Source of the DNA: Candidatus Micrarchaeota archaeon
GTDB taxonomy: Archaea; B1Sed10-29; JAJRYS01
Reading direction: 5' to 3'
Assembly: GCA_964643685.1 (NCBI GenBank)
Contig: CAZXTN010000001.1
Coordinates: forward strand, 96,001 to 160,000
DNA: 64,000 nt
In this document: one piece after another, positions 14,161 through 34,080 of the stretch
How the letters are laid out: each line of letters begins with the position of its first letter
Position numbering within the stretch: the stretch's first letter is position 1
The notes under the pieces: generated by a model
What the model was told of the DNA's origin: nothing
What the model saw: the letters and a program-made list of their open reading frames with translations, nothing else
The model's database searches: none
Translations under genes and position numbers: made by a program

Positions 14161-14280
14161 TTAATTAAACAGAATACACAAGGGTTCCTTCTGCAACTAT
14201 GTTTACTATGCGTTTTGCAGAAGTTTCTTCTGCAACTGCGCTTGCTATGCGTTTTGCAGAAGTGGGGGAGCTTGGAAAAC
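14161..14280 (+). repeat. Degenerate copy of tRNA-Leu(TAA) upstream flank and 5' end, interrupted by two tandem 36-nt hairpins
   Basis: TTAATTAA..AGAA..CAAGGGT and GGAGCTTGGAAAAC match 14286-14328; units CTTCTGCAA...TTGCAGAAG at 14188-14223 and 14227-14262. Confidence 0.85.
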
Positions 14281-14303: not shown

Positions 14304-14424
14304 GCAAGGGTGGCGGAGCTTGGAAAACGCGCAGGACTTAAGATCCGTACACAGGTTTTCAAACCTACCGGTTTGGTTATCCTGTGTCTCAGTGACTACG
14401 AGGGTTCAAATCCCTTCCCTTGCA
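14304..14424 (+). tRNA. tRNA-Leu(TAA) with 37/38 intron (~14343-14378, 36 nt)
   Basis: GCAAGGG/CCCTTGC; CAGGA-CT-TAA-G|...|A-TCCTG; long variable arm; GAGGG-TTCAAAT-CCCTT. Confidence 0.9.
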
Positions 14425-14603
14425 CTAATGGGTTTTATGCCCATGGGTTTTGATGCAACTTTTGTCAAAAGTTGCGTTTAAATCCCTTCCCTTGCACTTT
14501 GAAAAAAAATAAAGGGACTAAGCGAAGCGCATGTCGCTGGATTAAATGCAATTTTTGTTAAAAATTGCTGACAATCCCTTCCCTTGCACTAATGGGCTTA
14601 TGC
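14425..14603 (+). mobile_element. Two short palindromic inserts, each followed by a direct repeat of the tRNA-Leu T-loop-to-3' end (att-like)
   Basis: AATCCCTTCCCTTGCACT at 14409, 14481 and 14573; hairpins GCAACTTTT-GTC-AAAAGTTGC and GCAATTTTT-GTT-AAAAATTGC. Repeats are seen directly; mobility is inferred. Confidence 0.65.
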
Positions 14604-15968: not shown

Positions 15969-16164
15969 ATAAATAAGAAAAAACCAAACAATGTTTATAA
16001 ACATTCGCTCATAAAATACAAATAAAAGGCAGGGACATGCAAACAATTAAAAAATTGTTTGAACCCCCTACATTATAAGACTGCTGTTAAAAATGCAGGG
16101 GTGCATGAACAAAGCAAGTTTGTTCAATCCCCAGCTTGCCACTATGACAAGCTATTAAGAACAA

Positions 16165-16389: not shown

Positions 16390-16425
16390 TTTATTTTCAA
16401 ATTACAAAAAATGAGTAAATGAAAT

Positions 16426-16500
16426 GCCGGGGTGGTTCAGCCTGCCCCTTTCTTTTAAAAAAAGAAAGCGACAAGTTCGCGGAAAGAAAAAAGGTTGAAA
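16426..16500 (+). pseudogene. Orphan tRNA-Met 5' exon plus a different intron-like sequence, no 3' exon
   Basis: GCCGGGGTGGTTCAGCC identical to 16516-16532; followed by 58 nt ending GTTGAAA (real intron ends GCTGAAA). Confidence 0.75.
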
Positions 16501-16515
16501 AACAATAGAAAAAAC

Positions 16516-16633
16516 GCCGGGGTGGTTCAGCCACTGCGTTGAAAAGATTTCAACGTGTTTTCAGCGCAGCTGAAATGGTTAGGACGCAAGACTCATAATC
16601 TTGAGATCGCTGGTTCAAATCCGGCCCCCGGCA
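16516..16633 (+). tRNA. tRNA-Met(CAT), elongator-type, with D-loop intron (16533-16575, 43 nt)
   Basis: GCCGGGG/CCCCGGC; CAAGA-CT-CAT-AA-TCTTG; strict BHB TCAG/CTGA, bulges CCA and AAT, outer stem CTGCG/CGCAG. Ile2(CAT) identity not fully excluded. Confidence 0.9.
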
Positions 16634-16640
16634 CTAAAAA

Positions 16641-16714
16641 AAGGGCTTTATACCCTTTTGGGTTTTGATGCAACTTTTGTTAAAAGTTGCCGAAGATCCA
16701 GCCCCCGGCACTAA
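16641..16714 (+). mobile_element. Palindromic insert followed by a copy of the tRNA-Met 3' end
   Basis: 16659-16690 matches 14444-14475 at 31/32 nt; ATCCAGCCCCCGGCACTAA repeats ATCCGGCCCCCGGCACTAA. Mobility inferred. Confidence 0.65.
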
Positions 16715-16781
16715 GAAATAAATGAAAAAAAGCCATAACAAAGCATTTAAATAATGCTTTAGATAAAAAAACATAGAAACC

Positions 16782-17808: not shown

Positions 17809-17936
17809 GCCCCGGTAGTCTAGTGGTTAGGATTCAGCCCTGTCGAGGCTGAGACTCGGGTTCAAAAGTGACTTTTCTTTTCAAAAAAGAAAAGACACCT
17901 GAAAAGAAAACACTACTGAAAATCCCGGCTGGGGCG
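17809..17936 (+). tRNA. tRNA-Asp(GTC) with 59/60 intron (17867-17922, 56 nt)
   Basis: GCCCCGG/CTGGGGC-G; CAGCC-CT-GTC-GA-GGCTG; TTCAAA|...TGAAAA|TCCCGG. Confidence 0.93.
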
Positions 17937-31388: not shown

Positions 31389-31418
31389 CTTCAAATAACA
31401 TTTAGTATTAACATCAAT

Positions 31419-31546
31419 GCAGAGGTGGCAGAGTGGTAATGCGCTGGTTCACTTTCGCTCGGCGAAATGAACGACTGAACGGAGTGAGGCGAGTCTTGAA
31501 AACCAGTGTCCTCCGGGGCGCTAGGGTTCAAATCCCTACCTCTGCG
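31419..31546 (+). tRNA. tRNA-Ser(TGA) with anticodon-stem intron (~30/31; 31448-31493, 46 nt)
   Basis: GCAGAGG/CCTCTGC-G; spliced CTGGT-CT-TGA-AA-ACCAG; long variable arm; BHB CGCT/GGCG with GGT and AGT bulges. Confidence 0.92.
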
Positions 31547-31646: not shown

Positions 31647-31661
31647 TGGATGGTTAAAAAA

Positions 31662-32117
31662 ATGAAATACGAGTTGTTCAGAACATTTTTGAAAATCTGC
31701 AGGCACGAGTTTCCATTAGTAGGCGCAACTGCAATAATAACAAACAAGAAAAAAGAAGTGCTGTTAAGTAGAAGGAAAAAAAGCGGGTTGTTTTATCCTG
31801 GTTATTGGAACCTCCCAGGGGGCTTGATTGAAATAGGAGAAACAGCAACAAAAGCCCTTAAAAGAGAAGTAAAAGAAGAGATAGGAGTAGACATAAAAGT
31901 GAAAAAATACACTGGAAGGTATTATGAAAAAAATTTAATTAGAAACAAGAAAATATATTCTACAATTACCCTTCCTTTCTACGCAGAGATAATAAGAGGA
32001 GTTCCAAAACCGCTTGACGAAACAATTGACGTGAAATGGTTCAAACCAAGCGAAATAAGAAAAATGAAATTAGCTTACAATCATAAGGAAATATTAAAAG
32101 ACGAAAAAATAATTTAA
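31662..32117 (+). CDS. Nudix hydrolase
   Basis: Nudix box WNLPGGLIEIGETATKALKREVKEEIG. Confidence 0.93.
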   Translation: MKYELFRTFLKICRHEFPLVGATAIITNKKKEVLLSRRKKSGLFYPGYWNLPGGLIEIGETATKALKREVKEEIGVDIKVKKYTGRYYEKNLIRNKKIYSTITLPFYAEIIRGVPKPLDETIDVKWFKPSEIRKMKLAYNHKEILKDEKII

Positions 32118-32128
32118 AGGATATAAAA

Positions 32129-32185
32129 ATGTATGAACTTTTTGAACACAAGCAAACAAACTTGTTTGTTTGCGGTGTCGAATAA
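32129..32185 (+). pseudogene. Relic copy of archease first 7 codons fused to a hairpin (18-codon mini-ORF)
   Basis: ATGTATGAACTTTTTGAACAC (MYELFEH) versus gene ATGTACGAATTATTCGAACAC; then GCAAACAAA-CTTG-TTTGTTTGC. Confidence 0.7.
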
Positions 32186-32199
32186 TGAGGGATAAGGTT

Positions 32200-32613
32200 A
32201 TGTACGAATTATTCGAACACACGGCTGACATAGGCGTGCGCGGATATGGAAAAACAATTGAAGAAGCATTTGAAGAAACAGCAAAAGCAATGACATCAAT
32301 ACTAGTAGACCTGGACACAATCGAAGAAAAAAAGACAATTAAAATAGAAGCAGAAGCAGACACCCCTGAAGAACTTCTATTCGAATGGCTGAATGAAATA
32401 CTAGCACAAATAGACATTGAAGGGATGATATTTAAAAAATTCAAAATAACAAAACTAAAAAACAACAAGCTGGAAGCAGAGTTGACAGGCGAACAACTTT
32501 CACCTGAAAAACACCACACTAAAACGCAAGTAAAAGCAGCTACTTATTCACAGCTAAAAGTATACAAAGATGAAAACGGGCGCTGGATAAGCCAATGCAT
32601 CGTAGACGTCTAA
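32200..32613 (+). CDS. Archease
   Basis: YELFEHTADIG, VKAATY, C-terminal IVDV; directly upstream of rtcB. Confidence 0.95.
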   Translation: MYELFEHTADIGVRGYGKTIEEAFEETAKAMTSILVDLDTIEEKKTIKIEAEADTPEELLFEWLNEILAQIDIEGMIFKKFKITKLKNNKLEAELTGEQLSPEKHHTKTQVKAATYSQLKVYKDENGRWISQCIVDV

Positions 32614-32646
32614 AAAAAATCAAAAAAATTGGAGGTGTGCGGAAGT

Positions 32647-34080
32647 ATGGACTTAGCACAATTAAACAAAATATCAGAATACGAATGGGAAATAGAGCAA
32701 ACAGGAAACATGAACGTACCTGGAAAAATATTCGCTTCACAGTCACTAGTTGAAGCAATGGGAGACAAGGTAAAAGAACAGATTCAAAACGTGGCCCAAT
32801 TGCCAGGAATACAAAAAGCAGCAATGGCAATGCCAGACGCCCACTGGGGCTACGGGTTCCCAATAGGAGGAGTAGCAGCATTTGACCCTGAAGAAGGAGG
32901 AGTCATCTGCATGGGAGGAGTTGGCTACGACATCTCATGCGGAGTAAGGACACTTAAAACAAACATGACACTGGAGGAAATACAGCCTTACTTAGAGCCG
33001 CTAGCAGATGAATTATTTAAAACAGTACCAGCAGGGCTCGGAGTGCATGGAAAAATAAAATTAAACGTCGAGCAATTAGATGAAGTTTTAGTAAACGGAG
33101 CAGAATGGGTTATTGAAAAAGGATATGGCTTAGAAGAAGACTTGGAATACACTGAAGAAAGGGGAAAAATGGGAGGAGCAGACCCAACAAAAGTTTCATA
33201 CAAAGCAAAAAAAAGACAATTTAAAGAGATAGGAACACTCGGCTCAGGAAACCATTACCTAGAAATACAATACGTTGATGAAATCTATGATGAAAAAATA
33301 GCAAAAATGTATGGATTGGAAAAAAACCAAATAGTAATTTCACTGCATTGCGGTTCAAGAGCACTCGGACACCAAATAGGAGTTGATTACACAAAAACGC
33401 TGACAGAAGCAGCTGAAAAATACAAGCTAAATCTACCAGACAAAGAATTGGCAGCAGCTCCAATCAACTCGCCAGAAGGACAAGATTACTACGCTGCAAT
33501 GAAAGCAGGAGTAAACACAGCACTTGCAAACAGGCAAGTGATAGGTCACTTGGCAAGAACAGCATTTGAAAAAATAGTTCCAAACAGCGAAGTAAAAATG
33601 TTCTATGACATTTCACACAACACATGCAAAGAAGAAGAACATGTGATCGGCAACAAGAAAAAGAAATTATTCGTGCACAGGAAAGGGGCGACAAGAGCAT
33701 TCGGCCCAGGCAGAAAAGAACTGCCAAAAAAATACATGCAAGCAGGACAGCCAGTATTAATAGGCGGAACAATGGGAACATCTTCTTTCATTTTAGCTGG
33801 AACAGAAGAAGGAACTGAAAAAACATTCGGAAGCGCCTGCCACGGAGCAGGGAGAGGAATGAGCAGGAAACAAGCTAAAAAACAATTCCACGGAGAAAGC
33901 ATAGTAAGCCAGTTGAAACAGCAGCAGAAGATAATAGTAAAAGCCCATTCAGCAGCAGGAGTAGCTGAAGAAGCGCCAGGAGCTTATAAGAATGTAGAGG
34001 AAGTGGTAAATTCCGTGCATTACACTGGCTTAGCTAAAAAAATAATCCGCTTAAAGCCACTAATAAACATTAAAGGATGA
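32647..34080 (+). CDS. rtcB: RNA-splicing ligase RtcB
   Basis: MPDAHWGYGFPIG, GYDISCG, GSGNHY, HCGSR, HRKGAT, CHGAGR, EEAPGAYK. Confidence 0.97.
   Translation: MDLAQLNKISEYEWEIEQTGNMNVPGKIFASQSLVEAMGDKVKEQIQNVAQLPGIQKAAMAMPDAHWGYGFPIGGVAAFDPEEGGVICMGGVGYDISCGVRTLKTNMTLEEIQPYLEPLADELFKTVPAGLGVHGKIKLNVEQLDEVLVNGAEWVIEKGYGLEEDLEYTEERGKMGGADPTKVSYKAKKRQFKEIGTLGSGNHYLEIQYVDEIYDEKIAKMYGLEKNQIVISLHCGSRALGHQIGVDYTKTLTEAAEKYKLNLPDKELAAAPINSPEGQDYYAAMKAGVNTALANRQVIGHLARTAFEKIVPNSEVKMFYDISHNTCKEEEHVIGNKKKKLFVHRKGATRAFGPGRKELPKKYMQAGQPVLIGGTMGTSSFILAGTEEGTEKTFGSACHGAGRGMSRKQAKKQFHGESIVSQLKQQQKIIVKAHSAAGVAEEAPGAYKNVEEVVNSVHYTGLAKKIIRLKPLINIKG

Follow-up and report, generated by a model that had tools for sequence, protein, structure and literature searches.

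A duplicated archease start in a micrarchaeal genome, possibly turned into a coupling upstream reading frame within a structured leader

In this work we have examined the start of the archease gene in a Candidatus Micrarchaeota genome, within a stretch of 64,000 nucleotides to which we refer as the window. The gene lies between those of a NUDIX hydrolase and of the RNA ligase RtcB (Table 1) and its first seven codons are present twice, as ATGTATGAACTTTTTGAACAC at 32129-32149 and as ATGTACGAATTATTCGAACAC at 32200-32220, with 71 nt from start to start. The upstream copy is ATG TAT GAA CTT TTT GAA CAC, the downstream copy is ATG TAC GAA TTA TTC GAA CAC, and the product of both is MYELFEH. The original prediction, made from the letters of this DNA, had described the two starts and their distance correctly. 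It was also right that the three codons which differ (TAT/TAC, CTT/TTA and TTT/TTC) are all synonymous, although these differences involve four bases and not three. A repeat search of the window returned the copies as 22-nt direct repeats with 82% identity. Positions 1-136 of the Pfam Archease profile align to residues 2-137 of the ORF which begins at the downstream copy. As had also been noticed, the upstream copy runs into a hairpin and is closed after 18 codons. An ATG in the archease frame, at 32185-32187, shares its first base with the TAA. This short ORF could be translated, as was proposed. The order of elements in the leader is direct copy, hairpin 1, inverted copy, Shine-Dalgarno region and direct copy. 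The inverted copy was expected to pair back to the upstream copy, and in the single-sequence fold four such base pairs (GUGU/ACAC) do form, but its main partner is the downstream start copy, with CGAAUAAU pairing with AUUAUUCG.

Table 1. Features of the archease locus (window coordinates) and of three further duplicated protein starts (contig coordinates).
Feature	Position	Strand	Basis or remark
NUDIX hydrolase gene, upstream neighbour	31650..32117	+	ORF; Pfam NUDIX, E=1.5e-20; TAA stop 32115-32117
AGGA, weak Shine-Dalgarno-like motif 8-11 nt before upstream ATG	32118..32121	+	putative role, from sequence
Upstream (stranded) archease start copy, ATGTATGAACTTTTTGAACACA	32129..32150	+	repeat search; site corresponds to start position in insert-less relative L002
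Short upstream ORF, 18 codons (MYELFEHKQTNLFVCGVE) and TAA at 32183-32185	32129..32185	+	sequence
Hairpin 1, perfect 9-bp stem, GCAAACAAA-CTTG loop-TTTGTTTGC	32152..32173	+	predicted; folds, two-species consensus
Inverted copy of archease nt 8-21, GGTGTCGAATAAT; 5' arm of hairpin 2	32174..32186	+	sequence, consensus pairs
Hairpin 2, encloses archease Shine-Dalgarno and AUG; 3' arm is codons 3-7	32175..32218	+	predicted; folds, consensus
Shine-Dalgarno region of functional start (GAGGGAT, AAGG), loop of hairpin 2	32187..32197	+	putative role
Downstream copy, functional archease start	32200..32221	+	repeat search, Pfam alignment
Archease gene, 137 aa	32200..32613	+	Pfam PF01951, E=9.2e-46
RtcB RNA ligase gene, downstream partner, own GGAGGTG	32647..34080	+	Pfam PF01139, E=7.3e-168
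Class I aminoacyl-tRNA synthetase, 769 aa, start duplicated	C3:63939-64099 (L279 140-300)		ATG 64068
GatE, start duplicated, MADYK vs MTDYK, 118 nt apart	C4:52766-52902 (L280 167-303)		ATG 52887
212-aa protein, no Pfam family	C6:34488-34617 (L281)	-	83-nt tandem duplication

Could the second start be a product of assembly? We compared the contigs of four public runs over 31650-32700. A contig of run X1, which is possibly the source of the assembly, covers the full 1051 nt with 0 differences, and one of run X2, from another study, covers the full stretch with 2 differences, both within the NUDIX gene. Two shorter records are identical to the window: X4 record 18 (32088-32316) covers both copies, and X3 record 12 (32136-32365) begins inside the upstream copy. 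No joints or indels at the locus were reported in the contigs of the four runs, and among these contigs, which drop rare variants and so show presence only, there was no variant without the 71 nt. The duplication is real DNA; the assembly chimera which the original prediction had named as one possible refutation is contradicted by the contigs of independent runs. Its expectation of comparable cases elsewhere in the genome was likewise borne out. When every two ATGs no more than 300 nt apart were compared across the 695-kb genome, three pairs, archease included, agreed in six or more residues following the methionine; 20 block shuffles gave 0 such pairs, with a mean of 0.05 for five residues. 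At the base level the match (17/21) is unremarkable alone in DNA of 36% G+C.

Archease is present in 35 of 41 related genomes, the closest being 60-61% identical, and no second species of the same genus was found among the related genomes searched. In one relative (genome G004, locus L002) the NUDIX stop overlaps the archease ATG directly (ATGA) with nothing between them, from which it follows that the ancestral start lay where the upstream copy now sits. A metagenome scan yielded 79 archease loci, of which one, L031, is close, with an archease 83% identical. A further scan of contigs with archease gave 45 loci, most of them titled as Planctomycetota-type bacteria; the best was a partial match of 46% identity (40% full-length) and none was close enough. 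In L031 the NUDIX gene adjoins archease too and the layout is the same: the NUDIX stop is followed by an A-rich spacer with AGG, the upstream copy, a hairpin (CAAACAATT-AAA-AATTGTTTG), TCGAATAAC, GGTGAT and the archease ATG at 1501. Its upstream copy, ATG AAT GAA TTA TTC AAA CAC at 1431, reads MNELFKH. An upstream ATG-led copy occurs in two archease loci, those of this genome (G000) and L031, and is absent from the other 97 of the 99 loci which had 120 nt or more of sequence in front of the gene.

Four-fold degenerate sites are identical between G000 and L031 in 169 of 281 cases overall (0.60), the values for the single genes being 0.37 for NUDIX, 0.49 for archease, 0.61 for RtcB and 0.89 for S10. 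The upstream copy keeps 16 of its 21 bases and the spacer 34 of 49. The stranded frame has 18 codons in G000 and 25 in L031, where it ends with a TGA 5 nt inside archease, and the two peptides diverge after KQT (NLFVCGVE in G000, IKNCLMYRITGDKYV in L031), because the length of the spacer differs by one base and the frames are therefore different. The AGG motif lies at -11 to -9 from the stranded ATG in L031 and AGGA at -11 to -8 in G000, a distance which has been kept despite an intergenic spacer 15 nt longer in L031. Parsimony over the four copies makes both copies identical (ATG TAT GAA TTA TTC GAA CAC) at the split of the lineages. The derived changes would then be three in the upstream copy of G000, all synonymous, two in that of L031, both non-synonymous, and one, synonymous, in each functional copy. 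On this reconstruction the CTT and TTT codons of G000, in which the original prediction saw a possible former or donor allele, are derived; alternatively, they may be an older allele, with gene conversion in L031. Since the L031 copy reads MNELFKH, the synonymous-only pattern is particular to G000 and no longer speaks for a selected peptide or a donor allele. The broader claim, that the copy is an allele or an upstream ORF and not a neutral slip, survives in so far as slippage and artefact are set aside and the short ORF is translatable, but not in its argument from synonymous-only divergence.

According to the folding models, the conserved feature of the leader is the RNA structure and not the peptide. 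RNAalifold on the leaders of G000 and L031 predicts the same two hairpins with 24 pairs, and 3 of the 24 have changed on both sides and still pair (two in hairpin 1, one in hairpin 2), so that the covariation comes from three pairs in a leader known from two sequences. Hairpin 1 has nine pairs in both species. In hairpin 2, GU.UCGAAUAAY of the spacer (32175-32186) pairs with RUUAUUCGA.AC of archease codons 3-7, and the loop holds the AUG and the Shine-Dalgarno sequence, which is GAGGGAU in G000 and GGUGAU in L031. The predicted hairpin would occlude the main start in both species, and in both the upstream ORF enters its 5' arm. The changed pair, U-A to C-G, consists of a synonymous GAA-to-GAG change in L031 and a U-to-C change in the spacer. 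The 5' arm, TCGAATAAY, is read in different frames by the two upstream ORFs, which means that it is conserved as nucleic acid and not as codons. Compared with shuffled sequences, the G000 leader is stable with z=-2.55 (2/200 shuffles as stable) and the L031 leader with z=-3.72 (0/200). A perfect complement of at least 9 nt between the 50 nt upstream and the first 30 nt was found at 12 of 832 ORF starts and at 61 of 4998 random positions, a frequency of 1.2-1.4% at these controls.

The archease start is not the only gene end which is duplicated in this genome. Outside long ORFs, a seed-and-extend scan brought out 56 local direct repeats with a length of 15 nt or more, 57 with archease; 12 of the local repeats touch the end of an Rfam tRNA hit, and 9 include the start of an ORF of 60 aa or longer. 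Clear duplications of protein starts beyond archease concern a class I aminoacyl-tRNA synthetase, GatE and a 212-aa protein. For the synthetase, 34 nt are identical at a distance of 127 nt, and the stranded frame of 40 codons stops inside GGTGA. The stranded frame of GatE has 30 codons, and in the 212-aa gene the duplication spans the Shine-Dalgarno sequence, the ATG and ten codons, the upstream copy having decayed. In all three cases the stranded frame is open across the insert and stops shortly before the real ATG, by 7, 28 and 5 nt respectively, none of them in the frame of the gene. The null probability of such a stop position is 0.14-0.37 per locus for these three and 0.14-0.49 with the archease loci of G000 and L031 included, and the product for the four G000 loci is 0.004, a lead rather than a test, as the window of -30 to +10 was picked after seeing the data. 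Hairpin 1 belongs to a palindrome family, CAAACAA-N(2-10)-TTGTTTG, of which this genome carries 4 copies; a count in 20 relatives gave 0, and one in shuffles 0.0. Apart from hairpin 1, the copies are in the 5' flanks of tRNA genes, two in inserts upstream of them and one in a relic module which folds as relic arm, hairpin and complementary arm (z=-4.05). The hairpin of this module is identical to hairpin 1 of the L031 archease leader at 22 of 23 positions; for a match of this length the E value of 0.03 is marginal. The parallel which the original prediction drew with tRNA 5' relics is supported by this recurrence and by the three or more other duplicated protein starts.

We have also made a number of observations on the tRNA genes themselves. 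At 14404-14596 of the window a tRNA 3' end (AATCCCTTCCCTTGCACT) occurs three times with inserts of 49 and 74 nt between; each insert ends in a GCAACTTTTGTCAAAAGTTGC-type hairpin, and the same family is found after tRNAs at C2:16640 and at window 16642. Just upstream of a tRNA, at 14184-14263, direct and inverted repeats are interleaved, with GTTCCTTCTGCAACT and CTATGCGTTTTGCAGAAGT both present in two copies at a spacing of 39 nt. The tRNA with anticodon CAT at 16422-16718, of initiator or Met type, carries an extra D-loop segment; a copy of its first 17 nt stands 90 nt upstream and one of its last 16 nt stands 77 nt downstream. Two relic modules, each made of a copy of the acceptor 5' strand, a hairpin and the complementary strand, precede a tRNA at 16024-16150, and the hairpin of the first (CAAACAATTAAAAAATTGTTTG) nearly equals hairpin 1 of the L031 archease leader. 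At 17867-17922 an intervening sequence of 56 nt with a good bulge-helix-bulge (BHB) motif lies in a tRNA T-loop (anticodon GTC); the hairpin of this sequence (CTTTTCTTTT...AAAAGAAAAG) is found again in the insert of the synthetase start and in inserts of tRNA 5' relics. Elsewhere, at C6:36369-36626 and C1:166623-166804, tRNA 3' ends are repeated two or three times and are split by G+C-rich structured inserts of about 95-115 nt (ACCACTAAGCGAAGCGCATGTGGT... GGGGG...CCCCC), which occur at several loci. No BHB links from tRNA T-loops to 3' relics were found, and the relics are therefore no obvious alternative exons. In the tRNA between S10 and NUDIX (L031 about 660-900, window 31390-31546) a 5' relic and a T-loop insert are confined to L031, and a different internal insert to G000. 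Such relics and intervening sequences come and go even among closely related genomes, while the archease leader stayed.

How did the second start arise? A tandem duplication does not account for it: only 22 nt repeat, not the whole 71-nt unit, and the spacer is unlike its flanks. In alignments of the spacer with the flanks, 759 and 940 of 1000 shuffles were as good, so no decayed copy of a flank is present. A diversity-generating retroelement pair was rejected on the nature of the differences (T/C, C/T, T/A and T/C, upstream/downstream), which are not adenine-specific, and on the lack of an RVT_1 match in the genome. A known RNA family was discarded as well, the five Rfam matches in the window at gathering score all being tRNAs with none at 32100-32230. 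The degenerate start-copy pattern matched one viral contig (L160), by chance inside an unrelated ORF; no viral donor was found by this search, and the hairpin pattern fits more than 118 viral places, which in a collection of that size tells nothing. The insert is flanked by direct repeats (22 nt, 32129 and 32200) like a mobile element, and its 49-nt spacer holds no mobility gene. A BLAST search of the genome with a 51-nt spacer query returned only the self match. As regards a MITE-like repeat, the whole spacer is unique, only the palindrome of hairpin 1 recurs, and duplication lengths vary across sites. Tyrosine recombinase, reverse transcriptase and Cas1 (PF00589, PF00078 and PF01867) gave no match in this 91.75%-complete genome, and PF07282, the TnpB-type zinc ribbon, matched only below cut-off. 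An Xer-type recombinase is normally expected in a genome; all 14 control genomes matched PF00589. What remains as the origin of the leader is the insertion of a small hairpin module with target duplication, or recombination which used the conserved gene end as its anchor and joined illegitimately on the other side.

The best explanation we can offer, to which we give about an even chance, is that the original start was left stranded next to the NUDIX stop by an old insertion accompanied by duplication, and that this start now serves as a coupling upstream ORF within a structured leader. In the common ancestor of G000 and L031, about 49 nt of foreign or rearranged sequence and a duplicate of the gene's first 22 nt would have entered archease behind codon 7. 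The upstream copy would be the original start, left just past the NUDIX stop with its weak AGG(A) and ATG retained, and the insert would have brought hairpin 1, the inverted copy of codons 3-7 and a new Shine-Dalgarno sequence, so that the gene now starts at 32200. The leader may act in translation, with hairpin 2 keeping the real Shine-Dalgarno sequence and AUG in a closed loop. Ribosomes starting at the stranded ATG would translate the short frame across hairpin 1 as far as the 5' arm of hairpin 2 and stop a few bases from the real AUG; they, or ribosomes coming from NUDIX, would melt hairpin 2 and pass to the real start by termination-reinitiation. Archease, and perhaps RtcB also, would thereby be coupled to upstream translation, and the identity of the peptide would be an inherited by-product without selection. 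In favour of coupling, an upstream ORF with a start codon and a ribosome-binding motif lies on the same strand as archease in both species; counted from the real ATG, its stop begins at -17 in G000 and at +5 in L031. With null probabilities of 0.37 and 0.49, a frame that stays open is not improbable at a single locus, and these positions are weak evidence alone. We infer the translation of the upstream ORF and its effect on archease from this arrangement. Against it, hairpin 2 is AU-rich and, the organism coming from vent samples, may be weak at growth temperature; the functional start, with its own Shine-Dalgarno sequence in an open loop, may need no help.

Alternatively, the duplication and the spacer may be a functionless scar left by an old insertion or by illegitimate recombination at the conserved 5' end of archease, in which case the real start would simply use its own Shine-Dalgarno sequence and the similarity of L031 would reflect limited time. 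We consider this rather unlikely, although the upstream copy is decaying, with 5 of 21 bases different between the species compared with 2 of 21 in the functional copy, and has taken two non-synonymous changes in L031. The identity of the leaders, at 0.69-0.76, is also only modestly above the overall four-fold value, and similar duplications of gene ends are common in this genome, with 57 local repeat pairs outside long ORFs. However, scars do turn over, as the neighbouring tRNA relics and introns differ between G000 and L031, whereas the archease leader was kept, with both hairpins retained and all nine bases of the hairpin-2 arm (9/9) kept or compensated. The ATG and the AGG spacing were maintained as well, although the intergenic length changed by 15 nt.

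It might also be that the inverted copy pairs either with the stranded copy, around hairpin 1, or with the real start region, the duplicate acting as the decoy partner of an attenuator-like switch by which the real start would be open or closed; a geometry of 1:2 against 2:3 is the classical attenuator layout. In isolation, the stranded copy, hairpin 1 and inverted copy form a two-tier stem of -15.9 kcal/mol in G000 and -9.8 kcal/mol in L031, and the inverted copy with the downstream copy gives -14.4 and -14.8 kcal/mol, respectively. Yet the stranded partner is degenerate: its stem is interrupted in G000, and in L031 it amounts to six pairs rich in A and U. Its pairing with the inverted copy has been weakened by substitutions in either lineage, and the whole-leader and consensus folds prefer hairpin 2, which makes such a switch improbable. 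Is the peptide itself selected, as a regulatory leader peptide or a micro-protein for which the MYELFEH start is important? All four base differences between the G000 copies are synonymous, and a rough estimate puts the chance that all changes in the G000 upstream copy are synonymous at about 0.003, which hints at some peptide-level constraint or at another allele; coupling from the stranded start needs neither. Over both lineages, 3 of the 5 changes reconstructed in the upstream copy are synonymous against about 14% expected (an estimate), a weak hint at most. With E replaced by K, a charge is reversed in the L031 peptide; beyond KQT the frames differ and the peptides show no relation, their lengths are 18 and 25 codons, and we regard selection on the peptide as quite improbable.

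Highly improbable, in our opinion, is an intron at the RNA level, with the tRNA splicing endonuclease and RtcB removing 71 nt and joining the upstream start to the gene body. The idea has its appeal in a genome rich in BHB introns and for the gene of a ligase cofactor, and excising exactly 71 nt would restore the same protein. However, a scan which recovered a control tRNA intron of 56 nt found no BHB motif spanning the 71 nt of G000 or the corresponding 70 nt of L031; none joins the copies in G000, none lies anywhere in the L031 leader, and the sole BHB-like match (35 nt, G000 only) stems from the palindromic TCGA in hairpin 2. Finally, chance resemblance or an assembly artefact can be rejected with near certainty, for although 17 of 21 matching bases at this distance are not rare in AT-rich DNA, the peptide-level match exceeds that of shuffles, independent contigs from the runs of other studies carry the duplication and L031 has the same layout.

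If the stranded start has indeed become a coupling upstream ORF, it would show how a potentially lethal insertion at a 5' end is rescued and later made into a regulatory element. Archease is the cofactor of RtcB, the ligase which joins tRNA exons, and as the tRNA genes of this genome are heavily interrupted, it is likely to be of consequence for the cell how archease output is controlled. More tentatively, and with considerable doubt, we suggest that the archease leader is the domesticated and conserved product of an undescribed insertion process active in this small-genome archaeal lineage. In such a process short hairpin modules would enter the ends of tRNA and protein genes and duplicate the gene end; insertions at protein starts would survive only where the frame of the stranded start delivers ribosomes to the new one. 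Such a process may also give rise to tRNA introns and to new 5' leaders. Three of the four start-duplicated protein genes, those of archease, the class I synthetase and GatE, serve tRNA function. We believe that the gene-end duplications across the genome are a more novel lead than the archease leader itself: four protein genes and many tRNA genes with duplicated ends in 695 kb could be natural intermediates for the gain of intervening sequences.

Among known systems, the leader resembles those in which translation is coupled by termination and reinitiation or in which a leader ORF unmasks a hairpin-occluded start, as in ermC-type translational attenuation. Like these it has a short upstream ORF, a weak Shine-Dalgarno sequence and a stop a few bases from the next start, and, as in ermC-type leaders, its hairpin takes in early codons and encloses the Shine-Dalgarno sequence and the AUG. 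Unlike the latter, the upstream ORF opens with the gene's own first seven codons and the occluding arm is their inverted copy; no stalling signal or ligand is evident at archease. We know of no described leader built from the start of the gene it regulates, and on the present folds archease is best read as having a structured leader with a coupling upstream ORF that would be unusual in just this respect. Keyword searches of the literature library used here found no duplicated archease start and no similar duplications of archaeal gene starts.

Three further comparisons concern the origin of the insert. BHB introns have been described in archaeal protein-coding genes such as cbf5 (PMC2738675), and the archease insert is likewise an intervening sequence near the start of an RNA-processing gene in an intron-rich archaeon; by contrast, no BHB spans it and archease is complete without splicing. 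Casposons and small non-autonomous elements make target-site duplications at tRNA 3' ends (PMC5137440). As with such elements, direct repeats of the target flank a short insert and a hairpin family recurs at several sites, but the duplications vary in length here, from 15 to 60 nt, and neither a transposase nor terminal inverted repeats turned up. Sugahara et al. 2012 (PMC3293823) report partial copies of tRNA genes which result from the integration of mobile elements in Archaea, and link such events to intron gain. Their Caldiarchaeum case, a tRNA 5' fragment left by a 1.8-kb element encoding a recombinase, is the nearest precedent: there, as at archease, a fragment of the 5' end stands upstream of the intact gene with inserted DNA between them. 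In contrast to that case, the archease insert is only 49 nt long and carries no gene, and its target is the start of a protein-coding gene.
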